64,000 nucleotides of DNA from a virus (lineage: Duplodnaviria; Caudoviricetes): the IMG/VR virus record IMGVR_UViG_3300031994_000047, positions 1 to 64,000 of that record, one strand, 5' to 3'. Below, one piece after another: positions 28,703 through 50,558 of this stretch. Numbering within the stretch: the stretch's first letter is position 1; the number at the start of each line of letters is the position of its first letter. Under the pieces are notes generated by a model. It did not search any database. It worked only from the letters and a program-made list of their open reading frames with translations, and was not told the origin of the DNA. The position numbers were made by a program, and so were the translations under genes.

Positions 28703-29068
28703 TTACATTACAATTTCTTCTTGGCATTTAAATTTGTAAATAGCAGCAAATTTTCCTTTATATGAATCTTGCTCTCCAATTTTTATTATTATAATATCTC
28801 CATTCTATGCAAGAATATTATCAGTATAAATATTAGAGCACTTTTCATCAAATTCGCAAACACCATTTCTGATTATTCTTACTCTTATTGTCTCGCCCTA
28901 TACAATTGCATGAAAATCTAAAACAATAGAACCAGGCGTTATTGTGTATTCATAAATATCTTTATTAAATGTAAATCCAATTCCTTGCTATACATTTATG
29001 GAAAATTCATAAGACGGTTTTCTAGGCTCTAAATAATGGTTATGGATTAAAGGTGTAAGAAGAGACAT
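28703..29068 (-). CDS. Hypothetical protein (TAG=Gln), last gene of tail operon
   Basis: 121-aa ORF under code 15, TAATG overlap with upstream gene. Confidence 0.55.
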
Positions 29069-30387
29069 TATAATTATCCCTCTGTGTTAGGTTCTAAAAT
29101 ATGATTGTGTACTAATGTTACATTCTTTTCTACATCATTTCCACTCACATCATACCTCACAAGTCTAACCATAGGCTATCCTCTTCCAGACTTCAATACT
29201 CTCATATTAAAGTCAAAAACCGAAGGGTCCCCACCGGCTTCAAGCGTTAAAGTATTATCCACCATAATCTTCGCTTTAGGAATTACTATCTAGAACATCT
29301 CATCTTCTCCATTCTCACTACCGCGTGCGAGTGTATCGCCAACGACGTAGTAAGTACCAGGGAATGTATCGGCGGTTATATCTATTATATCTTCAAGAGG
29401 TCTTACTAATTGAGAAGTAATAATTACATCACCATCTAGGGGAACTGAAAAAATTTTAGGAATGTCGGTTATTTGGATTTCTTTGATAAACTCTACACTT
29501 GAGTCAGTTAAATACTATTGAAGTATAGTCATATCTACTGTATCAATTTGCCCATCTCCATTTACGTCTGCTGCCAATTTATCAATTTCTACATTTGAGT
29601 CAGTTAAATACTATCGAAGTATAGTCATATCTACTGTATCAATTTGCCCATCTCCATTTACATCACCGATCAAAACGCCGTAATGAGTTGCTTCTTCAAC
29701 ATCTAATCTTGGAAACACTTTAAACAGCATATTCCCATTTTCATCAATTGTATAATTCTCCCAGCCGAGACTTTTAATTGTATTTAAATCAATATCAGTC
29801 TATCCACTAAAAGTAACTGTATCTTCTACGGTTCCTGCATAAGATTCATCAGTTAAAATATCAATATCAAAAGTACAAAAATACTTTTCATCTTTACTTA
29901 ATACTTCAACCTTATCTCCATAATCATCAAAAAATGTCGGATTTATCTTCTCGCTTCTTTTTCCTTCAAATTGTATATAAGGATTCCAAGCTGGATCATT
30001 TTCAATATTTGCTACTGAAGTATTGATGCTAGGAGCAAAAGTCTCAGTTCTCATTATTAAAGATGCAGCCTTCCATTTACCCGCTTTTGTAACTATTTCA
30101 GTAATAGGAACATTTCCTATTTTTCCCCCATACATAGTCGCAAGAGACTTCATAGAAAATAGCGCATCTTGCACATTAAATGTAATTTCCTTCCCAAAGT
30201 CCCATTGTATTAAAGGAGCGTTTCCTTTGCCACCAACTGCCTATGTATTCTCAGCAGTTTGCTCAAGTGTCGAAATCTTTAGAGTATCGAGATAGAGGGC
30301 GGGAACGGTTGGATTCCCGTCCTCATCTATTTTATAAAATGTTACGTCGCACACTTCTTGTATGCCGTAAGTATCAAGTATTGACAT
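29068..30387 (-). CDS. Tail-tube paralog with inserted type I dockerin domain (TAG=Gln)
   Basis: N-term MSILDTYGIQEVCDVTFYK and C-term ADTFPGTYYVVGDT..(Q)IVIPKAK..NTLTLEAGGDPSVF match 45413-46279; internal GDVNGDGQIDTVDMTILRQYL x2. Confidence 0.88.
29492..29661. repeat. 74-bp direct repeat, 96-bp period, encoding the two dockerin Ca-loop/helix units
   Basis: Copies at 29492-29565 and 29588-29661 differ at 2 positions. Confidence 0.9.
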
Positions 30388-30401: not shown

Positions 30402-31838
30402 TTAAGTTATTTGTTGCCAATAGTCGCCATTCCAGATTAAGAATTGTTTTGCAGTTGAATCGTACATTATTTGTCCAAGATAAGATCCAGCAGGTGGCAT
30501 GTTTCCACGTATAGTCGTTAATGTTACTCCAGTTGCAATTCGAGCTTCATTTGCAATATTCTAACTAATACAATATAAATTCTAAGAAGAATAATTGGTG
30601 ATATTATTTGTATTTGTAGCGCGAAGAAAACAATAATCATCCGATCTTAAAGCATCTACAAAACACACATTATTCCGATATTCAAAATTTCCAGTAGCTG
30701 CTGTTATAGAGAAAAAAACATTTCCTGCTCCCGCACTAGCACTTATTGCTCGAACTAGACAATTATTGATATGGAGATCTTTTCCACCCTATGCAAAAAA
30801 TCCTTTGAAAAAACTATTAGTAGATGGTAATGCGGAAAAATTCCCACTTTTATTTTCTAATTTATTTACACTACACTATTCAAAAGTAACATTTGAAACC
30901 GTATTGCAAAATAAACCGCACCAATTAACTTCTAAATTACTATTCGAATCACAATAGATATGAACATTTTTAAATGTTGAACTCGCTATACTATTTGCAA
31001 AAATTGGGGCGTTTCGATGACTAGAAACATAAATATTTAAATCTTGAAAATATGCACTCTAAATAGAGCTAAAAAATGGCTTATCCTTCGCCAGATAAAT
31101 CGTATTACTATTTCCATATAAAGAAAAATCAACGTTGCTTGTAAGAGACCAATCTGATGAACTAGCAATTGCTATCTAGTACTTTAAAAATCCAGATTTA
31201 ATGTCACCTGAAAGCCATAAACTAAAATTATCCTAACTAACTTCAGTACCAGTTGTAACTTCTGTTCCCTAAAGATAGCTATTTTTTAAATACCCATTTC
31301 TATAACTCCAAATTGTTTGATTTAATGCTGTCTTATCTAAAGAAAATCCATTAGGAGTAAATGTAACCATGCACCCATCAGGAGTATAAGTAGAAACCGC
31401 ATTTTGAACAACACTTATTTCTTTTTTCCCATCATTTGTTTGCACCCATAACTTATTCTATCCATCCATTGGAACTACATAAATTTTATTAGAAGCCCAA
31501 GTGCCAGTAGTACCGCTTACATATTCAAAGGATGGTCTAGAGCTATCATTCACATATCCAATTGTAGCAAGCGATAATCCACTAGTAATATTAGCAGCAA
31601 TAAGATCACTAACTGCACTTATAAATGCATTATTTGATACAAAAGCATTAATCTAACTACTAACTGCCTCAACAACATAACCACCACTAACTGCGCCAAT
31701 ATTATTACGCGCATTGGTCTAATTTTCAGGAGTAAGAACCTAACGAGTAAATTTGACTGCACTTGCTTGCAATTCTGCAACCGCGTTTAAAAGTTCTTTA
31801 ACTTCTCCACCGGTCTTATTTAAATTATAATAATTCAT
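30402..31838 (-). CDS. Probable tail fiber/receptor-binding protein (TAG=Gln)
   Basis: AGGAGG RBS; LTPEN(Q)TNARNNIGA fiber-type motif; S/T/N-rich; downstream of Tal. Confidence 0.55.
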
Positions 31839-31849
31839 TTGTCACCTCC

Positions 31850-34800
31850 TCACGGCACAGGTATGCGCCCCTCTGTAATCCATTCTCCGCCATAAAAGCG
31901 TGCGAAAGTAATACCATCATCTACATCTATTCTGACTCTCCATAATGCTATATCATTAGAACCATATCGGCTTGCCGCGTTATAATAAAACTCAAGATAA
32001 GGATTGCCATACAACCCATAAATTGGACCCTATGGTCTATCACTTGGCGACACACCGCTAAGATCAACTTCTCCAAATCCCATTCGATTTATGCCATAAG
32101 AAGTCACAATCGGATTCTTATTTGCATTTAAAACACCAGTCTAAAGTGCGTCCATCGGCATTGTACCTGAATCCACAACTTTAGTCCAAGTTACACCACC
32201 ATCAGTAGAAGAACATAATCCACGCGAAGTAAGTTTTGTCATAATATTAGGATTTTCTTTATCTATAACAGTATAACCAGTACCATCTTGAAGTATATTA
32301 TTCATATTACCGCTAATTTTTTGATTGGCTTGAATCGCTTCTTGAACTTTTTGCGCGCTCAATGCACCAGAAGAACTCAAAAGATTTGCCGCCCGCGCAT
32401 AAGAACCTTGCGCGAACTATAAGCTCTATGTTTCAGCAGTTATTCTCTAAAACAAATCTTCAAACTAAGTCTTATAATTCTAAACTTTCACAACATCTTT
32501 TTCTGGCTCTTCAAAATAATAAGTAATCTCATATATATAAACAGGCTCTTTGTGTGGAGTCTTTACACCATAAACTAAATCATATCCAAAATACTCTACA
32601 TCCTCAATAAATGTAATATCTCCCACATCAAAGTCTTTACCTTTGAACTCTTCAAGCGCGCCGACTCTTAGAACATCAATTGTATAAGATACTTCGGGGC
32701 GCGCGGATGTATAGGCAACTTGAAGTGCATCTAAGTAGTATAAATTATCATCATAATACTTTTCATCATTCCAAGTTCCTTCTTGGATAAAGCGCGAATA
32801 TGATTCATAGAATTTCTTTTCTGCATTAGAAATAGCCGCTTCATGGGCTTTAATTTCTATTTCTAAATCTTTAAGTTTCCCATCAATACCAGTTTCGCTT
32901 ATCTACTTTCCATATGCCTCATACTACGCTTCAAACTTAGCTTTCTCAGCCTACGCATTTTTATACTTATAATATTCTGATTGAATTGAACTTACGCCGC
33001 CACCTTGTGTTTTCTATTTACTAATGTAATTAAAAACGGCAACATCAAAGTTAGTATCACTAGGAGGAGCATCGCGCATAAGTGAACGGATTCGTTCTTT
33101 AGAACTTATAATCTATTTTTCAGCGCTTGTACGACCTTCTTCTGCCATATTATAAAGCGCTAAAAACTTTTCTTTTTCAGTTATATAACTTTGTTTCAAA
33201 GCACCCTTTTCAGTAAGAGGCTTTATATTCTTACTTAAAACAGTATAAAGACCTTCTGGTCCATACATATCTCTTGTCAACTATTTTCTATCAATCAAAC
33301 CTTTAGAAATATAATAATCAAAATTCAGTATATAATCTGCGCCAGACGTATTGTCTTGCGCGCGACCTATCGCGCAGAAGCCATAGGTTCCAAATTCATT
33401 TGAATTTTGTAAGACAATTGTTTTTGTTGAAAGTGCATTTGATTTTATATTTCGTTTAATAGATTTTAGATCTATGCCATATACAAAACCATATCCTAAA
33501 TTCACGCCGAGCGTTGTATCGCCTTTTTTAATACGAACTTTTTTCTATAAGATCATACCATCTTCATCGTGGTCAATAATAAATTGAACCCAACACTTAA
33601 ATTGCTCAGCAATTGTTTGAAGAATATTGAAACGATTTGATTGTTTCGCGCTAATTGTAGCTTGGCGCTCATAGTTAAGATAAACGGGTTTAAGATTTGG
33701 ATTAACCCAATCTACTTTATCTTGGTATAAATAGGCTAAATCCTTAATATCCGTAATATTTTGTTGTTCAGTATGATTATAATAATTATAACGAACATAG
33801 GCTAGTGGTTCAGCATCAAAATCTTCAACATTATCGGGTGTAATAACAACTGGATCTGATTGCCCATCTTTTTCTAATTTGACTTCAGGATAGAACCTAA
33901 AAACATAAGGTCTTAATGGAGAATCTAAAGAGCCGCCACCCTATTCCTAGCTATATGTATATTCAGAGAACATAAACCCATACTTATAAATACCACCATC
34001 AACAAATCCATTAAATTGCTCTTTTCGAGATACAGACTCAGTAATTTCAATCTCTATTGTCCAGACCATAATTTTAAAAGTTGGCGGAATTACAGCACTA
34101 CCTTCTGGCTATAAGTAATTTTCTTTATAATCAGTCTACTCATCAGAGTTCTTTTTAATTTTTGCTTCAACACTATTAATTTTTAAGAAATCATTAGTGT
34201 TAATATTCTATATTATGTCTCCACTATCCTGATAAATATATATATGTGGCTCAAGTGGCGCGCGTTTGTCTTGTACTGATATACGATTTAATTCTTCTAT
34301 TTCTTCGTTAGTTACTAAAAGTTCATAAGAAACTCTATACTTATTACCTTTTACTAACCCATTTGGAAAGTATGTCGCCGCGCCCTATAAAGTAGTATTA
34401 TATAAATACTAATCAGGAATAAGTGCTAGTCCACCATAATCTGCACTATCTGAGCTTTGTCTAAACCAAGTTCTTTGTGCGTATCCATCTCGAAGAACTG
34501 CATATCCGATTGCTGGCTAAGATTTATTAGCATTTCTTCTAAAGAAATACCAATTCATACTATCTGTAAACTGCTCTGGATTTACAATTAAATTATTAAC
34601 TGCCGTGCAATCAAGAGTATCGGTATCTGTAAAACGATAAATTTCGTCGTTGCTACTTCCCAATTGCCATATCTAACAAACTCGATTTGTTAATGGATCG
34701 CACCTACTTTTTATATGATTTACTATCCTTTGCGCGCGATATTGAGTTGAAACTAAAGCATTCGCACTTAATGTAAAATATGAGGTACTCTAATCTTTTA

Positions 34801-36244
34801 AATGAAAACTCCAAAGATTAGCATTATAGGTCGCCGCGAAATTATCTACATAACACTAAACTCCATTTATTACAAGCATTCCGTCTTTTTCAACAATCGG
34901 CGTGCTATCAACATAATAAAATCCAAATCGACCTAAATCTACCTAAGTATTGTCTTCATAAGTTTGAGTCAATAACTAACTAACCTAAGAATAGAATAAC
35001 ATAACTCTCCCGTATCCAGATAAAACAATTCGTCCTTCGCCATTTTCTAAAATGGTAGTTACACCAGCGCCGCCATTTGGTGAATTAGCTTCATAAACCG
35101 GTTCTTCTACATACTCTCTTATCGTATCACTATTTTCCGCATCATAACTCCAATCTGTACCTTTCAACACATCCGTTATTAAGTTCGGAGCAGTATCAAT
35201 ATTATTCTATAACTCAATATCATAAGTAAGATTAAAACCCTATCGTGACAACTCAGAAATAAACTAATCTTCGCAAGTATAAGTTATGAGTTTTGAATCA
35301 GAACTTTCATCACAATTCTTTATGATAAAATCATACCACTTATCTTTCCATTTAACTTTCAATTTCTACTCATTAAAAAGATATTGAATAAATGGATTTA
35401 TATAATGATCATCATAAACTTGGATTCTTCGATAGATTAGAGGTGTCGTATCTGGCTAAACTGCAAGCGCTTTGTTTTCATTATTATGTTGCACGAAATA
35501 TCCATATAGACTCTCAATAATATCTAAATCGTAACACTCTCTTAGCATTTTAAATGTGAAAGTAGAAGTTCCGTTTATGTTCTTTGTTAAGACGGGTTCA
35601 AGAGCGGAGCATTGAGCTTTAAATGTGTCAGTGCCAATTATTGCAACTTTTTTCTCAGTCGGAATTTTTTTTAAAGACGGAACATCAACTAAATTTGGAA
35701 ACTCTGATTCAAAAAACTATATCTATTCATGTGCCTCATAGAAAATTGAATCACTAGAATTTTCTCCAATCACACAGCAATAATTATAAACTAGTATTCC
35801 AATATTATTTGATAAAATAGTAGAAGTATTATCTAAATTATAAACCGCCTCTGGATATAATGTTCGACCGCGTACATTCTCATTATTATGCAATATCTAA
35901 TAATATAAACCCTCTTTTCTGTTATTAGACTATTTAATAAAAGTATAATTATATGAAGAATCCCAGTCATTATTGGGAATAGCAAGCCTTAAAGCGTGGT
36001 TATATCCAAATCCCCTATGTTCCCAACCATCTTTATATAAAGTCTTAATAAATGTAGCAGCCTTATTCTTATTTTCAGGAGTTTGATTCTCTTGTCTCCA
36101 ATATTCAAAAGTAAAAGTAATACCTTCTTTTGGAATAATCTCTTTTATTTGTGCTGAAGCCACGAGATAAAACCAACCTACAACAGATGGCTTAAATGTG
36201 TCTTCCCATACGCTTATTTCATAAGGTTCTTGTATTGCAGCCAT
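31850..36244 (-). CDS. Large baseplate hub/Tal-like tail protein, ~1464 aa (many TAG=Gln)
   Basis: All ORF fragments (35930, 34985, 33281, 32141) in one frame; follows Dit; coiled-coil segment and YSRFIQEGTW motif. Confidence 0.65.
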
Positions 36245-36256
36245 TATCTCACCTCC

Positions 36257-37840
36257 TTAGAAATAGCGATAATCTAGCTTAAATGTAGAAGTTACATCAT
36301 CAGCAGAAAGAATCGACATTGATGCCGGATTCCAAGCAGGAATCGTCACCGAAGGGATTCCAGTAGATGTTGAACTAATATAAATAACATAAGTTGCATC
36401 TGGTTGTATTTTTGGACTAATAGCACCGTTCTGAACATTCTCATATAAACTAATCTACTAATCACATAAAAAAGGAGTTGCTTTTATAACTCTATTTAAT
36501 GAGCTTGGAGCAGTCGCACCACTACTTGGAGTACAAAAAACAGAAACCCAATAATTAGTTCCCGAACCACGCCCTCTATTTTTAAAGAAAGTAAAATAAC
36601 TTGTTACTTCCGCGCCGAGTGCAGCCTCCGCAGGATAGTCATTCTTATCAAAATAAAACTCAGTAGGAGTTGAAAAAACTATTGTTGCGTTTTGTGCTGA
36701 CTCTAATGTTGAACCGCCTTTAAAAACCCACTCATTACTTGTATTTTCAAAAGGACCATAACCAAAACCAAATGTATCACCAACATAGTTCTAAGCACTA
36801 CTAAGACTCGTTTCTGTCATAAAAATAACTCGATTGGTAGGTCGTTTTGTCGGCTCTATCCAACCTTTAGTTCTATTACCAATTATTTCCACCTTTATTT
36901 CGCGCCCATCACTAATTGGTAAATTACCAAAGGTTCCAGATATAATATAACTATTATAAATAGTTCCAGTTGGAACTCTTTCGAAATTTGCTCCTTTTAT
37001 AAGATGTCTTTCCATATCAATCAATATAAAATCATCATTTGTATTAAGTTTTGTAGTTATCGCGCCCAATTGAAGGATATAAAGATTTTCATCACCAGCA
37101 GAGATCCTTAAAGTTAAAGGCTCTTCCATAAGTTCAAAAGGAATATAAATTTTATATTCTGCTGGATAGTCTCCATTATTATATAACACAAGCTTTTTAT
37201 CAGTAAAGTCTTGCGGACCAGCTTCTAAACCACTTGCTTCCGCCCACTCGCCAATATTCGGATAGTTAAATTCATCATACTGTGACAAATATGGATGCAC
37301 AGCCCGCGCGAAAGGATCGTAGCAAATGAAGTTTATTGTACCCTCACCTTTATATACCCTTTCAAAAATTGGAGTAACCTCATCTTCTCTCACTCCAACT
37401 TCCTCATCAAAACACACATACTTAACTTGAAGAGGCTACTGTAACTTAACAGTATAAGCCTTGAAAGGATACTCATCAAAAATTAATTCTCCCATATTCT
37501 TTCCATCAAAGCGTTTTCTCAAGGCGCGCAGTTGTGTCTCAGACATATGGTCAAATGCAAATGAAACTTGGATCTAACGCGCATTATAAAAACTCTCGAA
37601 GTAATAAGCCCCATCACGCCCAGGGGCTTGATAGGTCTTATCTTGAAAAGGGGGAGAAGTTATGTCATTATATCTTGAACCGTCACTGACACGAGTAATC
37701 CCAAAGTCGCTTGAGTGAACCCAATCAGAACACACTCTAGGTTTTGGTTCATCTTCAGTGGAAGGCTCAATCTCTTCAAAAGTTTCGCCAGGTAACACAA
37801 AGCAGAAACCTTCGAAATCTACTCTTTTAAATCTTTCCAT
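36257..37840 (-). CDS. Distal tail (Dit-like) protein (TAG=Gln)
   Basis: PGRDG, ELIFDEYP, FICYDPFA, NNGD motifs; directly after tape measure. Confidence 0.7.
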
Positions 37841-37940: not shown

Positions 37941-40900
37941 TTATCGGAGATAGCTTATGACGCGTGTGTTACGGTATTGTCCATCTTGGTAAATTTGTTG
38001 TTTAATGCGCGCGGCAAGTTGGTCTACGTCGTAATCAGATCCAATGTCGGCATCGATTTTTATGTCGAAGTATGTGTCACCAGTTAAGGAGTTTTGTTGA
38101 GTTGGATCGAAGTTACGAAGAATATCGCGGAGAGCGATAAAGTTTTGAGAATCGGATGGGTCTAGGACGACTTCGGGATGGGATTTTGTACCATCGAGCC
38201 AAGCAGGACCAGTAAAGTCTGCGAGACCACCTGCCTAATAGGTGAACCCAGCATTTGTGAGTTTTTTTCGAGTATATTCTGCCCAATCTTTCCAACTTGA
38301 GTAATTCCAAATATAGGGAACTTTAACACTTCCAGAAGGTCTAAGATCCTTTTCCCCAGTCTTCACGCCAGGCAAATCCATAAAATTAAGATCCTTTAGA
38401 GCGTTCCAAATATCTGTTGGCATTAAATTCCCCTAAGACCAGTCCCACACATAATATGGATGATATAAACGAGAGCTATGATCGAGTTCATATCTTAACT
38501 TAGTTAATTTATCATACGTCTTTGTTATTGTATCATCGCTCCAAGTATTAACCTATTTTTCATCATAAAATTCGCTTTGCAAAATAGAATTCATTTTTCG
38601 ATAAATGTCACCATCTCTAATAAGATTTTCTTCACTCTCAGAAATATTATCTTGACTAGTATTCTATTCTCCATTAGTTTCCTAAGTTATCTTATTTCTA
38701 TTTCGTCTATTTTCAGCCGTCACGCCCATCTCTACAAGATCATAAATATATCCTTTTTCATTTCGTGCTTTGTTTAATAGATAAGAAGGCTATAGCTCTG
38801 GCTCTGATCCAAAAACTCCCTTTTGTTCATCGTACATAAGTCTATTCCAATCATCATAACCATAAATTTTATTTATTGCTTTTTTTGCTTCTTCTTCATC
38901 AAAAATATCTTTTGTACCTGGCTCTTCACCATCGCCAATAGACTAATTGCCCGTCTTATCAGCATCTTCTTTAGCTTTTGGTATCTTTTTTCCAAGTTCA
39001 ACTAAATCGCCATCTGTTGCTAATTTATTACCTTTTGAGATATCTTTATTTATTTTTGTGGCACTTAATCCGCTTTCAATTTCTGTTTCTAAATCAGAAG
39101 TCCACTTTTTCTATTGCGCATCAGTCATACCAAAAAATCCGTCTGCAGCCTATAAACGGCCAATAATTGATTTATCACCATTACTAAGCGCATCCTTCAA
39201 GTCTTGAATGTCTTTAGCTTTCCCGCCTTCTTGCCACATCTTATACTGACTCTATAAAACTTCAAGCTAATCAGTCTAAACTTTCATAACTTCTTCATTC
39301 TAAGTCTCAATCTCTTTCAGCGCGCTATCTACAATTCCATCAATATAAGACTCTCTTTTTGCATCCAATTCCTTCTAAGTCTTCATAATCTCAAGGCCAT
39401 TTGCGCCAGTCGTATCTCTCTATAAATACGCAAGTCGATTCTCAAGTTCAGCAACTTCTTCTTCTTTTTTCGTGTTCTCTCTTATTTCTCTCTCAAGATC
39501 AATACTCTTCCTTAATTCATCAACAATTCTCTAATTACTTTGCTAAATTGCGTCATTTAATGCTTCTTGATCTTCAATTCTTTGTTCCCATTCTTTCTCT
39601 AGCATATTTCCAAGACGATCTTCAAGAGTAATAATATCTTCGAGTCTTTCATCTTGTAAAGCCTTTAAATCATCAGTATTCTCATAAATCTCATCTTCTT
39701 TCTTACGAACCAAATCAACCGCTTTTTGTAACTCTTCACGATATTTATCTGCTGCTTCTGAATCATCTTTATCTGTCAATTTTGTATACGCATCGGTCAT
39801 CTAAATGGTTCCAAACTCATCAACAGTAAAGTATTTCTATTGCTCAGCATATGTATGATCGACGCCGTTTTCATCTATCCAATGCTTGTTTCCAATATTC
39901 GCAAGTTCTTCCTTAGCAATTTCAAGTTCATTTTCCAAATTCTATCTTTGAAGCTATAATGCAGAAATCTCAAGCTCGCGCGCAGTTGTAACCTTTTGAA
40001 TATCAAGAGTTCCATCTGCAAGAAGTGCATTATATTCTCTCTAGTATTTTGAACGTTCTCTTTGAAGAGTAACTTGAATTTGATCCAAGTTATAAAGACG
40101 ATCAATTTCATGAATAAAAGTCTCAAGACCTTTCGCGCCATTTTCAGTAGCAGTAATAAGATTCTTTAATGACTTTCCAAGATTCTCAGTACCTTCACCA
40201 TATTTCTTTTCAAGCTTTATGATATCTTCCCAAGCAATTCCTACTGCTAATGCTCTTTCTATAAGAATATCTGTAGCAGTATTTGAGATAAAATCTAATT
40301 CTTGAATTGTGTCTTGTATAGCAAGTTGAGCATCTGTTAAACCTTCATTATATGACTAAAGATATCCAACTACTTCTTTTGCAGTTTCTGGCTTAATAAA
40401 CCAAGTTCCATCTTGCTTAAATGCTTTACCTTCAATATAATCTCCCATATGTGAATATAGGTTCTAATATTCTTCTTCTGTTAGCCCCTTATTTAACTGA
40501 AGTTTTAAAGCAATATCTACGAATTCTTGCCACTGGTCGGTTGTTTGCGCCATCTTACGACCAGCCTTTTCGCCATCTTTATACAGGATCTTAATTAATG
40601 CATCAAAATCTTTTAAATCTACGCCTAAACTTTTAAGATAGTTGATAAACTATTGAACCGCAGGCATACCTTCTTTTGTTATATCAATACCTATTAAAGC
40701 CTAAGCAGCAATTTGTTGATTCTTACTAGATAGCTCATTAAAACTAAACTAAACACCAGAAGATTGTCTATGAACAGCTTCAGACTATTCCTTCGTTAAT
40801 CCATTGATCATATTATCCGCAAGCCCTTGTAAAATATCAAGAAGTCTACTTCCACCTGCTTTTTTATAATCATCTATAAAACTATTCAATTGTTCTTTTG

Positions 40901-43900
40901 TTATAGTCCCAGCTTCAAATTCTGTTAAAAATTTTGAATTATTATTAAGTAAAGCATCTGATTCTAATTCAGCTATTTTTTCTGGAAACCTTGCTATTTC
41001 TTTTATTATATCCTGATTAAAGAGTGTTTTTGTCTTATACAAACCCGCTTTAGATAAGTCATCCTCTAAAATTCCTATATTATTTTCAATTAAATGTTCA
41101 TAATATTCTGGATCAAAATAAGTATTTGTTATAATTTCAGCTAATTTATCTCCATTACCAAAAATGTTAAGATCAATCATCGCTTTTTCAAAAGCTTTTT
41201 TAACATTATCACTTTCACCGCTTAAAATAGCAGAAGCAATATCATCTAATTCTTCGGCGGTAACTTCTCTATCTGCTAGTCCACTCCAAAGTCCATAAGA
41301 ACTTCCAATTAATTCATTAAATTCTGTTATACTACGATCTTTTATGGCTTGCTATATATCTTTATAGTTTGCAACTCTAAGTGTAAGTGGGCTTCCTATA
41401 AAATGTTCCCACCACTGAATGCCAGTTGTAATTCCTCCAGAGCTTGCAATAGATGTCATTTCTTTATTTTCTGCTAGTGCGGCATTGTAATCTTCATAGG
41501 CTCTTTGAATATTAGACTGTCTTAGTTTAGACATCTCTGCTCTAAGACCTTCTTCGCCACCCTCTTTAAGTTTCCATTCGCCGTTTTCATAGGTAAAGAA
41601 CTCTCTTAATCTAGGAATTGTCTTTAAAAGATTATTAACTGTATCATTTACTTTTTGTACTGATTGATTCCATTCATCGGTACCTTTTACTAACTCAGTA
41701 GTCTATTTTGAATATTCTGTTGTTAAGGTATCTAAAGCCTTCTCACAAGTATCGATTTCTTTGTTGGTCTCTTCAATTTTTTCTTTTAATTCTTCTTGCT
41801 TCTCTCTTAACTCATCAATTCTTCTTGAACTTGCGTTTGCAGCATCTGAAAAAGCTTTAATTGCTACAACTGCTCCCGCAATAACCGCAGCAATTCCAAG
41901 TATCCACCAAAAAGCCGCTTGCATAATAACTCCTTTACCAGCAGCCTTTAAAGATTCATTACCTAAAGCCTAAATTGCTTGTCCTACTACTGGTAAAATG
42001 GCGCCGACAACCGATAATGCAGTACCAACTGTAGTTATTGCCTTACCAAAATCAGAAGTCTATTCTGGGTCCATCGCCGCAGAAAGCATTACTAGTGCAG
42101 TACCAGCCGTTGATAAAGCCATACCCATTTTTTGAGTATCTACAGTAGTCTTTTGAGTTGTTAATCCAAATTCTAAGAATACCTTATCAACATTTTCTGC
42201 TGACATACCAGTTGCAACTAAATTATTTCGTAAAGTTTCCACACTTCCATTAGCAGACTCAACCGCTTGAATCATCTAGCCAGTCTTTTCAGGATCTAAA
42301 TTAGATTTTGTAATTAAACCATTCTAGCCAAATAGAAGATTATCTTGCTAATCAGAGCCGAAAGTTTTTTTCGCTAAAAAAGATGTCTTATTAAACCCAA
42401 TTAAATTTTTAAAAGATCTTTTCTAACCTACTCCACTAACATTGGTCTTTTTTATCTCGCCTTCTACCGCAGCTTTAAATGCTTTTCCAGCTTCGGTTCC
42501 AGCCTCTCTAAATATTTTATTAATACTTCCAAAAAGTCCATTAAACACAGTTCTTGCAACCTTAAATCCACTCCAAAGCATTAGAATCTTTGGAAGAATT
42601 CCAGCCCAGCCATTTAATCCTTTTGTAATATTATTAATCGCATTAATAATACCAGTCAAGATATCTACAACACCCTTCACAAGATCAGATTCCATTAATC
42701 CCATCGTAAAGGTATCATACGCATTTTGCAAACGATTTAATTTACTATCTAATGAATCTAGAGTCTTTCCAAATTGCTCATTAGATGCTCCAGCTGAATT
42801 TTCAGCAATGCTTACAAGTTCTTGTGTGCGCGCATAGTCTTGCATAAGTGCAATAAAACGCGATTGCTAACGCGAACCTGCCGCTTGTGTTGCAATATAT
42901 CTCTATTGAACAGTGCTTAAAGTATCCCATTTCTCTGAAAGTTTCATAAGAATAGAATCCAAACCTTCAGTTCCCGCGAAGAAACCAGACATATCAATTC
43001 CCGCAACTTCTCTCAAAGCCGCAGAAATCTTGTTAAGATTTATAACTTCTCCTTCTTCATCTGTTCCAGTCAGTCCACCTTCAGAAGCAAGTTTTTTAAC
43101 TTCACCAAATCTAGAAACAATAGTTTTTAATGCGGTACCAGCAGTCTCAGGAGATTCTTGTGTAGTTTCAATAATCTATGTTAAGAATGCAGAAGTTGTT
43201 TCAAATTCCATACCCGCCGACTTAGCAAGTGAAGCAACTTTAGTCATAGCAGTTGAAATTTCATCCACATTAGCCGCAGCTTTAGCCGCAAGAGCAGAAT
43301 AAACATTATTGATACGTCCCGCACTAGCTTCATTAATTTCCATATTAAAACCACGCAAGGCGTTCGTCATACGTTTTGTAGCATCTTCCGCACCGAGTCC
43401 CGCAATACGAGCCATTTTTAGGGTTTCATTAGAAACTGCCATAACTTCATTTGTTTTTAAGCCCTATTGATAAAACAAAGTAGCAGACTCATATGCATCA
43501 TGAACCGATACACCAAGTTCATTTGCTCTACGTGTATATTCTGGTAACTGTGACCACATATCTCCAACAGAGAAGTTTGTAACCACAGCCGCTTCTGTCA
43601 TAACTTTGTCAAGGTCTTTAATAGTTGCAAAAGCCGAACGAGCCGCGCGCTTTAAAAGATTAATAGCATTTGCAGCGCCAAAGAAATAAGTAATTTTGTT
43701 TTTAAAATTCTCCATTTCTTGGTTCATTTCATTTTGAGCCTTTGCCGCGCCGAGCTATTCTTGAGTCATATTATCGAGCGCTTGAGCACCCTATTTTAAC
43801 TCTCCAGTCTAAGCATCTATATATGCGTTGCCTTCGGCAAGTGCTTGCGCATAAAGCTTCGCAATTTCAGCGTTCTAGCCATCAACAATGCCTAAACGCT

Positions 43901-44543
43901 ATTTAACCTCTGCTAAATTCTATGCTTTTTTAAGAGCATATTCCATCGCAGCAGCTAAATCTCGCATTTCTTTTGCATTAAAACCGCCGGCCTTGTTGAG
44001 TTTGGAAGTTGCTGTTATTGCAGCTTGTGCCGCCGCAAAATCTCCACTTCCCATTGCAGATTCAAAAGTGCCGACCGTTCCAGGAAGTTTTGTAGTGATT
44101 GCTGCTTTCGCGCGCTAATACTTTGTATTCTTCGCTTTAATAGATTTTGCCGCAATTGCGCCAATTTCAGTCTATGTCTATTTTATTGAATTATTGATGT
44201 CATCAATCTATTGTTTTACACTCGCACTAAAAAAATCTTTTAATTTATCCTTTGGAATTTTATTTAAAAGTTCTGTTAAATGCGTCCAAGTATCGCCAAT
44301 TTGTTTACTAGCCGTATTAAAAGCATTAATATCTTTATTGTCTTTTAGTCCGCGCGCGAGTGCCGCTCCAGCTTTCGCACCAGCATCCTCAATTTTTGTA
44401 AACGCTTTTGAGAAAGATGACTAAAGTTTTTCAGGTACGCCTAATTTATTTAGAAATTCTTGAAGTTGCTTAGTTTTTGTAAGAGCGTCTTGAATGTCAG
44501 TTACTACATTAAACTAAACAACTCTTTCAATTTTATCTGCCAT
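37941..44543 (-). CDS. Tape measure protein, ~2200 aa (many TAG=Gln)
   Basis: Nine ORF fragments in one frame; TP901-type core (AANVDEISTAM, AGTALKTIVSRF, AAGSR(Q)QSRF); Ala/Lys helical composition, TM segment. Confidence 0.88.
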
Positions 44544-44557
44544 TCTCCTTCAACTCC

Positions 44558-45340
44558 TTATATATCACTATTAATATCATCATTCAAAACTAAGAACTCG
44601 ATAATATGTGATTGACCTCTTTGTCCCACTGGAATAGCGCGTCCCTAAAAATCTAAAACATATGGATTACCATTTCTTCCAAGCATAAGACTTAAAGTAC
44701 TTGTAATTTTAATTTTTGGGATTCGTATAATTCCAGTTTTTATAACTCCACTTACATCATCTTTTACTTTTGTTTGTCCTTCCAAATAAATATATCCATT
44801 AAATAATCTCTAGTCAAATAAAAACGCATTATAACCATTATTATAATTATAGTTATAATAAACGCTTACTTCTTTAAAAGCATCATTAATTTTTATGCTT
44901 CGCGCGCTAAGTATTTCATATTGTAACTTTTCTCCAGTATTAAAATCATATATAAAAAGCAAATCGGCAAAATCTTTTGAAAGCGTTATAATTCCTTCTG
45001 CTGAACTCTCGAGATGTTCAGTAGTACTAATTTCAATTCGATCTAATTCCGAAGACTGAATAAGTCGTGAATTTTTCAAAAGTGCTAATTGCTCATTTGT
45101 CATTGTGCCTTTTGAAAATTGAAGATTAATTTCTTTTACTGTATTCCAAAAAACCCAACTTCTGTTGCCAAATCCACCATCTGCGCTCACAAACTCAGAA
45201 CTTTCTTGTAATCCAAATATTTCCAAATGATCGAAAAAAGCAATTGGCTCATTTTTCTCGATCTGTCGATTGCCTACTTGGAACGGATAGGTCGCGCGCA
45301 GAGTTATGTTATCGATTTCTCGAAAAGTAAATTCTGACAT
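44558..45340 (-). CDS. Diverged tail-tube-like protein (TAG=Gln)
   Basis: FFDHLEI..ADGGFGN..W..KEI and IIRIPKIK..GNPYV align with major tail protein motifs. Confidence 0.6.
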
Positions 45341-45412: not shown

Positions 45413-46279
45413 TTAGGTACCAGGATTTTTTAAATCGTGGTTATGAATTAAAGTATGTGTAGCAGTTGTAGCATTTCCAGTCACATCATACTTAATCAAT
45501 TTCATCATAACTTTATCAGCAGGACGAAGCACTGTCAAGTTAAGATTGAAAACAGAAGGATCTCCACCAGCTTCAAGAGTTAGAGTGTTTTCAGCAGAAA
45601 CTTTTGCCTTAGGAATAACGATCTGGAAGAACTCATCCTCACCAGATGCTTCATTTCTTGCATAAGTATCACCAACCACATAGTAGGTACCGGGGAAAGT
45701 ATCAGCAGAAATTTCAATAATACCATAATTCTTAGCAACAACATCATAATTAATGAAAAGTCTGTCATTAGCACTTACTGTTGCATTAGATAGTAATGCA
45801 CTACCATTTGCATCAAAAACTTTTACATCAAAAGCTTGAGGTTCAGAACTTATCGTTGGTGCTGTTGTACTAAGAGTTGCCTTAGCCATCTTTCCATTTC
45901 CAAGATCAATGGTTAAGCCATCAACCATTGCTGAAACAGTAGTTTCTGATCCAACAGTATAAGTCATAGTTCTCATGATATACGGAGAAGAAACCGATTC
46001 ATAAACATTTCCGTCACCATACATAACTGCAAGAGACTTCGCAGAGAAAAGCGCATCCTCAAGAGTCACTGTAATCTCTTTTCCATAGTCCCACATGATA
46101 AGAGGCGCATTACCCTTACCACCTTGAGCCATAGTAGTTTCAGCAGTAGTCTCAACAGTAGAGATCTTCAAAGTATCCAAGAAAAGAACTGGAACAGTAG
46201 GAAAACCAGCGCTGTTCAACTTATAGAAGGTAACATCGCAGACTTCTTGAATACCATATTTATCTAAAATACTTGCCAT
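45413..46279 (-). CDS. Major tail tube protein
   Basis: Position before tape measure, highly expressed codon usage, no TAG, downstream stem-loop at ~45366-45393. Confidence 0.75.
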   Translation of the reverse strand: MASILDKYGIQEVCDVTFYKLNSAGFPTVPVLFLDTLKISTVETTAETTMAQGGKGNAPLIMWDYGKEITVTLEDALFSAKSLAVMYGDGNVYESVSSPYIMRTMTYTVGSETTVSAMVDGLTIDLGNGKMAKATLSTTAPTISSEPQAFDVKVFDANGSALLSNATVSANDRLFINYDVVAKNYGIIEISADTFPGTYYVVGDTYARNEASGEDEFFQIVIPKAKVSAENTLTLEAGGDPSVFNLNLTVLRPADKVMMKLIKYDVTGNATTATHTLIHNHDLKNPGT

Positions 46280-49493: not shown

Positions 49494-50558
49494 TTAAAAC
49501 CCATAAGGATTTTCCATGGTTTGTGGAATATTGCTCATTTTATAAGTAGCCCAGTTATAATTAGTCAAAATAGCACAACCCATCTTCTTCCAAGCATAAA
49601 GCTCGATAGAATTATCTCTATTCTCATGATCCTTAATCTGAGTTTGACCCTCAAGCACAACCTTCACAACCTTCTCTTTTCCAGTAGGAAGTATGTAAGC
49701 AAGTTGAGGATCGATCCAAGTCTTAGTATTGGTTTCATCAATGAAAGACTGAGGAATCTGAACGATCGGCGCGCCACGGAAGATATTGATATATCCAGTT
49801 CTATGAATGGCTTCAATATCATCTGGAGAATAAATACCAACCACAGGATTAGTATTAGCACCGCCAATAGGAACAATAGCATCAGGACCCATAGCCGCAA
49901 CAAACTCAGGTGGTGCAAAGATAGTCACACCATCACCATAAGCTCTTACGACGTTCATAAGTTGAACCATCTTATCAGCTTCAAAATCACCAAGGGCCTC
50001 ATATTTATTTGTATTTGGCATATTATTGAAAGCAGCACGAAGAGCCTTCTGAACTTCCATATAGACAGCATCAATCAAGCCATCGCTAATAATGCTAGCA
50101 ACCTCTGCAAGAGACTCAGCGCCATCAAGCATACGCTCGAAGTCAATAGTAGCACCGCCACCAACTGCGTGAGCAGCAACTTCAAAAGTATTGCTATCAA
50201 GTCTGAAAGTTTCATAAACACCAGAAAGACCAACTTGAGTCAAAAACTTCTTAGCGCGCTCTTTACCAGCTCTCTTCTTAAAGATAGCCTTCTCACCTTG
50301 TGCCACAGTCTGCACCTCAGCGAAAGGAGCAAGAGCAGAAGCAACAGTCTTAGGAAGAACTTCATCAACACTCTCAACAATAATTTGATAAATGTCGTAT
50401 CTGTTCTTCATAAACATATTAACAGAACCAGCAAGTTCCTTTAGACCATCGGCAAAAGCCGCATCCATATCAATTTGAGTTCCTTCCTTCGCATAGTTAG
50501 CAGGAACAGTGCCCTTAATTGCATGAAGGGCGATTTCTCTTAATTCACTAAAAGTCAT
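49494..50558 (-). CDS. Major capsid protein
   Basis: 354 aa, after protease/scaffold and decoration genes, strongly biased codons, no TAG, followed by terminator. Confidence 0.8.
   Translation of the reverse strand: MTFSELREIALHAIKGTVPANYAKEGTQIDMDAAFADGLKELAGSVNMFMKNRYDIYQIIVESVDEVLPKTVASALAPFAEVQTVAQGEKAIFKKRAGKERAKKFLTQVGLSGVYETFRLDSNTFEVAAHAVGGGATIDFERMLDGAESLAEVASIISDGLIDAVYMEVQKALRAAFNNMPNTNKYEALGDFEADKMVQLMNVVRAYGDGVTIFAPPEFVAAMGPDAIVPIGGANTNPVVGIYSPDDIEAIHRTGYINIFRGAPIVQIPQSFIDETNTKTWIDPQLAYILPTGKEKVVKVVLEGQTQIKDHENRDNSIELYAWKKMGCAILTNYNWATYKMSNIPQTMENPYGF

Follow-up and report, generated by a model that had tools for sequence, protein, structure and literature searches.

A predicted type I dockerin nested in a paralogue of a phage tail tube protein encoded with reassigned TAG codons

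We examined a 64,000-nucleotide (nt) stretch of the genome of an uncultured tailed gut phage (Caudoviricetes; positions 1 to 64,000 of IMG/VR record IMGVR_UViG_3300031994_000047), referred to below as the window, and within it a minus-strand gene that is predicted to encode a 437-amino-acid (aa) paralogue of a YomU/SPR-type tail tube protein with a type I-like dockerin in its middle. Cohesins and dockerins form a Ca2+-dependent plug-and-socket system that gut Clostridia use to clip proteins onto surfaces, and few of the protein-protein interactions with which bacteria build surface machines are as tight and specific as their pairing. An initial annotation of this DNA had described a 439-aa second copy of the tube protein at 29068-30387. 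The gene instead spans 29074-30387 on the minus strand, encodes 437 aa, and is the third family member in the window, the others lying at 45413-46279 and 44558-45340. Its parts, for which we borrow the domain names D1 and D2 of the SPR tube protein, are as follows.

29074..30387, minus strand: dockerin-bearing paralogue of the YomU/SPR-type tail tube protein, 437 aa, with ATG at 30387 and TAA at 29076-29074
30124..30387, minus strand: N-terminal part of the tube-wall domain D1, residues 1-88; 98% and 94% aa identity to the orthologues P0001 and P0002
29863..30123, minus strand: family-type middle domain (D2 equivalent), residues 89-175, placed by family consensus and lying inside the swapped block
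29677..29862, minus strand: orphan pre-dockerin segment, residues 176-237, from an exhaustive search
29503..29676, minus strand: predicted type I dockerin module, residues 238-295, from Pfam, PDB matches, AlphaFold 2 (AF2) and Foldseek
29492-29568 and 29588-29664, no strand assigned: two 77-nt direct repeats encoding the dockerin halves, 96% identical, with a start-to-start spacing of 96 nt
29386..29502, minus strand: orphan post-dockerin segment, residues 296-334, leading into D1, with a low predicted local distance difference test score (pLDDT)
29077..29385, minus strand: C-terminal part of D1, residues 335-437; 63% aa identity to the major tube protein and at least 94% to the orthologues

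Reading frame and recoded TAG codons

The plus strand of 29068-30387 holds no coding frame. On the minus strand, reading TAG as Gln, which the initial annotation had held to be necessary, yields a single open frame that contains the dockerin peptide quoted there. Six in-frame TAGs occur in the gene, at codons 49, 196, 259, 291, 366, and 404. The motif AAAGGAG, situated 8 nt 5' of the ATG and right behind the TAA of the preceding gene, has the sequence of a strong ribosome-binding site. The GC skew switches sign near 28 kb, and the gene is encoded on the minus strand.

The TAG=Gln reading is justified because the tape measure gene (2200 aa, 52 TAGs) and a Tal-like gene (1464 aa, 37 TAGs) in the same window are open only under it, so that recoding is required well beyond the gene under study. 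Moreover, the TAG at codon 366 falls on a Gln position with at least 90% conservation across the tube family, and three orthologues retain TAG at codons 49, 366, and 404. Position 18 of the dockerin repeat is Q in many dockerin relatives and is a recoded TAG in both halves here (codons 259 and 291), as the initial annotation had recognized. Judged from its codon usage, the phage is a stop-codon-recoded one in which TAG is read as Gln (code 15). The two recoded TAGs inside the dockerin mean that a standard annotation would truncate the gene and hide the domain.

No suppressor tRNA with a CUA anticodon was found among the 13 tRNAs of the 94-kb record (~76% complete), and a TAG suppressor must, on this reading, be encoded in the portion of the genome that the record lacks or be supplied from another source. 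The 13 tRNA genes are clustered at L007:4524-10169 (88.5-94.2 kb of the genome). TAG is unevenly distributed among the structural genes: the tape measure, the Tal-like gene, and the dockerin-bearing paralogue are rich in it, in contrast to the major tube gene (45413-46279, minus strand) and the likely major capsid gene (49494-50558, minus strand, phrog_4088), which have none.

An identical 437-aa protein (P0337), annotated YomU_Tube-Dockerin_1-YomU_Tube, is encoded with the same neighbours on a 104-kb contig of an independent European Nucleotide Archive (ENA) assembly, ERZ27256871. Because that assembly encodes the identical protein, a chimera of assembly is ruled out.

A dockerin within a tail tube paralogue

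The dockerin proposed in the initial annotation was borne out by a Pfam search of the code-15 translation, in which Dockerin_1 (PF00404) matched residues 241-293 (29509-29667) with an E-value of 4.6e-16 and 59.2 bits, against a gathering score of 22.9; a six-frame Pfam scan of the whole genome returned the same match at 58.3 bits. The best PDB sequence matches are likewise dockerins. When the insertion was searched against 1.84 billion representatives, 7,489 proteins were recovered at E<=0.001, and nearly all of the 150 best matches are centred on the dockerin segment.

The module consists of DVNGDGQIDTVD followed by MTIL(R/Q)QYL, present twice, 32 residues apart, and the two halves share the consensus D-V-N-G-D-G-Q-I-D-T-V-D-M-T-I-L-(R/Q)-Q-Y-L. 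The Ca-loop residues are D242, N244, D246, G247, and D253 in the first half and D274, N276, D278, G279, and D285 in the second. Among 31 aligned dockerins (this one and 30 relatives), loop positions D1, N3, D5, G6, and D12 are invariant or at least 90% conserved in both halves. This comparison uses an alignment of the insertion alone, which replaced a mixed tube and dockerin alignment (MAFFT) that had left the dockerins out of register.

Structure prediction depended on the alignment in a similar manner. A first full-length AF2 model rendered the dockerin as strands, the alignment having no depth there, and the insertion-only alignment was used instead; with it, residues 239-299 were modelled at pLDDT 95-98. 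Foldseek superposed this model on 6kgf, 2mte, and 3ul4 with a root-mean-square deviation of 0.8-1.1 Å over 57-60 residues, and target-normalised template modelling (TM) scores against type I dockerins solved in cohesin complexes were 0.80-0.91. Type II (2y3n, 5k39) and type III (5n5p) dockerins ranked far lower (E 0.3-1.9). By sequence and by its predicted three-helix fold, the dockerin is genuine and type I-like, and we hold the identities of both domains, dockerin and tube, to be close to certain.

Known type I dockerins, such as Clostridium thermocellum Doc48S (2mte), C. acetobutylicum CaDoc0917 (6kgf), and that of C. cellulolyticum (2vn5), have the same two 22-residue Ca2+-loop/helix repeats 32 residues apart and the same predicted three-helix fold, and the high internal symmetry of the phage module recalls that of the dual-binding ones. 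Unlike cellulosomal dockerins, the phage module does not form the C-terminal end of a secreted enzyme but is nested in a tail structural protein, contains two recoded TAGs, and shares at most 58% identity with any sequenced dockerin. Its halves are identical at 21 of 22 residues, whereas the median for the 30 relatives is 50% and equal symmetry was found in two of them. Both halves have kept the helix positions through which dockerins contact cohesin. The near-identity of the halves on which the initial annotation had based dual-mode binding is thus confirmed; dual binding itself may be suggested by the symmetry, a property matched in 2 of 30 relatives. Near-perfect two-fold symmetry of a dockerin has been linked to dual cohesin binding (title of PDB 2vn5).

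The segments on either side of the dockerin are of another character. In the exhaustive search of the 1.84 billion representatives, residues 176-237 had no relatives but fragments of the same gene, and residues 296-334 had none. A Flg_new identity for residues 176-237, raised by a weak BLAST alignment to a repeat unit of the protein P0247, was rejected, Pfam giving no match even at E<=10.

The protein that carries the dockerin is, by sequence, a paralogue of the major tail tube protein of the SPR/YomU type. Residues 2-126 are 60% identical to the 288-aa protein encoded at 45413-46279 and residues 334-432 are 63% identical to it, which upholds the earlier description of a tube-protein copy with a central insertion. 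The 437-aa protein matches phrog_2729 in two stretches (E 9e-42). In a search of 5.8 billion clusters, PF27173 (YomU_Tube) was present on all homologues listed; for the 437-aa protein itself, PF27173 is the annotation of the identical P0337, on either side of the dockerin. For the full-length protein, AF2 gave a model whose pLDDT averages 61; across most of the D1 core, the block means lie at ~64-85. The top Foldseek matches are tail tube proteins at probability 0.99-1 (8xkn and 8ygm, both SPR, 9n71, and 6xgr), and VIA-align returned tube-type folds in all 50 of its 50 rows, with Z-scores of 9.5 for the YSD1 tube and 9.1 for the JBD30 tube over 146 aligned residues. The ratio of nonsynonymous to synonymous substitution (dN/dS) in D1 is 0.046-0.075, a value indicative of strong purifying selection, and for this reason the protein should still be able to join six-fold tube rings.

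The SPR/SPbeta tube protein (PF27173; PDB 8k98, 8xkn, 8ygm, 9jgh) belongs to the same family, stands closest by sequence among the solved structures, ranks with the top fold matches, and has the same two-part D1 split by a central region. When expressed in Escherichia coli, it assembles by itself. In SPR, the N- and C-terminal strands constitute D1, which forms the wall and inner barrel of the tube, while the central D2 is a decoration that protrudes outward (PMC11850899). SPR has one 264-aa tube protein with an immunoglobulin (Ig)-like D2, whereas here a third paralogue at the far end of the operon has a swapped middle and a dockerin insert. This middle comprises a D2-type domain (residues 89-175), a counterpart of which is present in all family members and which AF2 models at pLDDT 79-96 over residues 110-170, and then a 158-residue insert of 62 orphan, 58 dockerin, and 39 orphan residues. 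The dockerin is located where the SPR tube protein has its protruding D2. The initial annotation had called this a variable site, and relatives do differ there; in the SPR structure the site corresponds to the outward decoration (PMC11850899). From homology and geometry, the dockerin must face outward if the 437-aa protein enters a ring, and incorporation of the protein into the virion seems probable to us.

Tail operon and exchange of the decoration cassette

The 437-aa gene is the last but one of the tail operon, behind the Dit, Tal-like, and 478-aa genes, and unlike the genes of the 288-aa and 260-aa paralogues it is not upstream of the tape measure. Its neighbours in the window are:

28703..29068, minus strand: 121-aa open reading frame (ORF) containing three TAGs in frame, swapped together with the cassette and a separate gene in the independent assembly
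30402..31838, minus strand: 478-aa protein, conserved at the N-terminus and replaced towards the C-terminus, a candidate for a receptor-binding or fibre protein
31850..36244, minus strand: Tal-like minor tail protein, 1464 aa, 37 TAGs, phrog_6211
36257..37840, minus strand: distal tail protein (Dit), Pfam Sipho_tail, phrog_33
37941..44543, minus strand: tape measure protein, 2200 aa, 52 TAGs, Pfam PhageMin_Tail, 84.8 bits
44558..45340, minus strand: second, divergent tube paralogue, 260 aa, phrog_2729, E 4.3e-20
45413..46279, minus strand: major tail tube protein, 288 aa, no TAG, phrog_2729, E 1e-49, upstream of the tape measure

The 288-aa major tube protein has a weak PDB sequence match to the SPR tail tube protein. 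The 260-aa paralogue lies between the major tube gene and the tape measure, the usual spot of the tail assembly chaperone, and no obvious chaperone or frameshift gene was seen between these two genes.

The setting of the gene bears on whether its product is a virion protein at all. A soluble role would be conceivable, either as a decoy presenting D1 to host sensors of the DSR2 type or as an occupier of cohesins released at lysis: the defence protein DSR2 recognises the D1 of SPR-type tube proteins (PMC11850899), the gene lies apart from the main tube genes, and its six TAGs make expression dependent on suppression. We regard this as very unlikely, since the gene stands at the end of the tail operon, where its translational coupling is normal, no sign of a DSR2-bearing host was seen in the data, and a conserved, intact surface-binding module subject to cassette swapping would be left unexplained.

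Two metagenomic phages, one of them from a pig-gut data set, share 85-93% DNA identity with the window in both flanks of the gene and have the same order of tape measure, Dit, ~1400-aa protein, ~500-aa protein, and tube paralogue. Within the gene, DNA similarity to these close relatives is confined to 30410-30124 and 29385-29093; nothing is shared between 30123 and 29386, and similarity resumes exactly at 28703. The tube paralogues of the relatives (687 and 656 aa) are 94-98% identical in aa sequence in D1, and they have no dockerin; the cassettes that they hold, at two sites, are unrelated, and an extension is fused to their C-terminus. A survey of relatives for domain swaps, as the initial annotation had proposed, therefore recovers unrelated cassettes at this very site in two close relatives. 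The pattern is that of a decoration region exchanged by recombination, a signature of host interaction at the level of sequence. The 478-aa protein encoded upstream has a comparable pattern: its N-terminal 50-185 residues are kept in close relatives and the remainder is replaced (blastn gaps at ~31280-30500 against L002 and 31690-30410 against L008), as would be expected of a receptor-binding or fibre protein, for which it is a candidate. It has no Pfam or PHROG match.

Downstream, the 121-aa ORF begins with ...LIHNHYLEP, a near-copy of the LVHNHILEP that ends the tube paralogue, and it aligns weakly with the fused extension of the relatives (27% identity to residues 572-686 of P0001, E 4e-4). 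Since the junction motif is duplicated and the ORF aligns with the extension, it looks like a C-terminal domain that became detached when recombination introduced the dockerin cassette. The same duplicated motif and split domain could equally be cited, together with the single phage genotype in which the cassette is known, for the notion that the cassette is a functionless neutral passenger or a recombination scar. That notion appears highly improbable given an intact frame of 437 codons, the intactness of all 10 of the 10 Ca-loop positions examined, strong purifying selection on D1, and identical sequence in independent assemblies.

The co-exchange of neighbouring sequence raises a different possibility, namely that the dockerin is an internal assembly plug that fastens a fibre or accessory protein (the 478-aa, Tal-like, or 121-aa protein, bearing a cohesin-like module) to the tube ring. 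The gene has tip and fibre genes for neighbours, the cassette is exchanged with or next to both the 121-aa ORF and the variable part of the 478-aa protein, and the equivalent of the 121-aa protein is fused to the tube paralogue in relatives. Against it, a six-frame Pfam scan read through stops found no cohesin at E<=1 in the ~76%-complete, 94-kb record, and the 478-aa, 1464-aa, and 121-aa proteins have no Pfam match at that threshold. Moreover, relatives with other cassettes share the tip genes and have no dockerin, which means that the tip assembles without one. We find an internal plug improbable, though less so than a soluble role.

Beyond these close relatives, a single-protein scan of IMG/VR found no relative, and a scan with an alignment of the three orthologues found only tandem major-tube pairs of more distant phages and no insertion-bearing forms. 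Cultured relatives are large Bacillota siphoviruses (the Lactococcus 949 group, Bacillus phages PJN02 and Kirov, in which the gene is annotated as "tail tube protein", and Brevibacillus phage Sundance), and in all of them only the tube core matches. In SPbeta-like relatives (L031:10001-19103 and L032:10001-17958), 3-5 YomU_Tube paralogues, 297-941 aa long, stand in tandem ahead of the tape measure, and no dockerin was found in these arrays. Judged by gene content, several tube paralogues may make up or decorate the tails of these phages, and because related phages carry such 3-5-member arrays, differently decorated tube paralogues are a trait of the lineage. In three of the IMG/VR relatives the major tube gene is matched in two profile pieces ~0.8 kb apart (G003:C1:56761-58396, G004:C1:21191-22769, and G005:C1:38937-40512); as the match is broken at profile position 36 or 56, an intron or an inserted homing endonuclease may interrupt the gene.

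We observed a dockerin within a tube protein in one phage genotype only. A similar dockerin occurs in 3 of 50,697 GenBank phage records, all three being short, unannotated human-faecal contigs. A Dockerin_1 match of 30 bits was also noted in IMGVR_UViG_3300033463_000007 (232 kb, requiring TGA=Trp), in an otherwise unannotated 2410-aa protein encoded at L017:2839-10071 on the plus strand with 37 in-frame TGAs. Our literature search turned up no report of a naturally occurring dockerin in a virion protein of a phage: what connects dockerins and phages is phage display, engineering, look-alikes among carbohydrate-binding modules (CBMs), and one note on an archaeal virus contig, in which the dockerin adjoins a NosD-like gene. 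Nothing was found on YomU in combination with the tail tube.

Ligand, host and possible role of the dockerin

Decoration of siphophage tails by Ig, fibronectin type III (FN3), and carbohydrate-binding modules is well known; lambda, SPP1, and lactococcal phages all carry adhesion modules on their major tail proteins (PMC7291167). The Ig-like domain of lambda gpV, the FN3 domain of SPP1 gp17.1*, the CBM of the lactococcal 936 group, and the "evolved" Dit and Tal proteins likewise place a binding module on a core tail protein, presumably for a reversible first contact. In those phages the modules are of Ig, FN3, or carbohydrate-binding type and are attached at the C-terminus or through frameshifting; here, the module is a dockerin nested in a separate paralogous gene. 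What is new is the dockerin as a decoration module and its nesting in the decoration site of a separate tube paralogue with an exchanged cassette. Precedents exist for minor tube variants: in SPP1 such a variant is co-assembled with the major subunit, and in phage T5 the protein p140, which has a duplicated tube domain and forms trimers, is a tube-like protein of the tail tip complex. As a tube-fold paralogue of the distal tail, p140 offers a model for a variant in a tip ring, although it has no sequence relationship to the protein described here and no dockerin.

We hypothesize that the third tube paralogue, having kept D1, would join six-fold tube rings, either scattered along the tail or as a dedicated ring at the tip. 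Its protruding D2 region, exchanged by recombination, here holds the additional 158-residue insert with a complete, symmetric type I dockerin, so that six dockerins per ring on the outside of the tail would form a multivalent, Ca2+-dependent plug. This plug may bind cohesins on surface proteins or scaffoldins of a Clostridia host, or on particles coated with such proteins, and a reversible adhesion at first contact would raise the chance of productive adsorption through the tip, which has its own variable receptor-binding candidate in the 478-aa protein. Taken as a whole, this chain, in which a tube-ring subunit displays a dockerin for Ca2+-dependent, multivalent, and reversible binding to cohesins on the host surface, stands for us at an even balance of belief and doubt.

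The ligand is the step on which this balance turns. The nearest dockerins (40-58% identity) belong to assorted surface proteins of human-gut Firmicutes, where they often alternate with Flg_new repeats, and some of the carrier proteins also have cohesins. The cellulosome or scaffoldin named in the initial annotation is thus too specific a target, while association with surface proteins of gut Firmicutes, in part cohesin-bearing, is retained. Named genomes with a related tube gene are limited to an unclassified goat-colon metagenome-assembled genome (MAG) and a rabbit-gut Clostridia MAG; the latter, whose tube gene is 40% identical, encodes one cohesin at 37.7 bits, which is weak evidence. That the ligand is a cohesin could, in our estimate, go either way.

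If the dockerin is displayed as described and its ligand is not a cohesin, the target might be a polysaccharide, an S-layer or wall protein, mucus, or a dietary particle, or the module might be a Ca2+-stabilised spacer for binders in the orphan segments. The ~100 orphan residues around the dockerin, having no relatives, could form such a binding domain, although they are largely unstructured by prediction. Dockerins are common where no cohesin partner is known, and the mixed architectures of the nearest dockerins fit this. Known tail decorations, too, bind carbohydrates (PMC7291167). Conversely, the match of better than 1.1 Å to cohesin-binding type I dockerins, the contact helix positions preserved in both halves, and the near-perfect symmetry of a kind associated with dual cohesin binding all favour a cohesin. 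We consider a non-cohesin ligand unlikely, but deserving of serious thought.

Several observations weigh against the proposed display of a cohesin-binding dockerin on the tail. The segments flanking the dockerin are orphan and of low confidence in AF2, being largely unstructured by prediction. Outside cellulosomes, dockerins are widespread, and for many of them no partner is known. The third paralogue is missing from five more distant IMG/VR relatives, which have the tandem tube pair only and no dockerin, and it is hence dispensable for building the tail. When 20 kb of phage DNA was compared with 399 scored Clostridia genomes, the matches were short and at chance level, with no spacer-like ones. 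In addition, a dedicated tip ring is as likely as a spread of the protein along the tube, considering the place of the gene by Dit, Tal, and the 478-aa gene.

A further extension, in which the paralogue forms a swappable adaptor ring, the host cohesins of cellulosomes, amylosomes, or similar scaffoldins are the primary receptor, and exchange of the cassette switches host range, is one we advance only tentatively and think doubtful. The dockerin hypothesis is directly testable, as the module is small, folds by itself, and can be screened against panels of cohesins. If true, the phage would exploit the plug-and-socket system of its host as a receptor, unlike the usual recognition of sugars or porins. 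More generally, the cassette site in the tube paralogue would represent a modular route by which phages may retarget adhesion, a matter of interest for the ecology of gut and rumen and for phage scaffold design.

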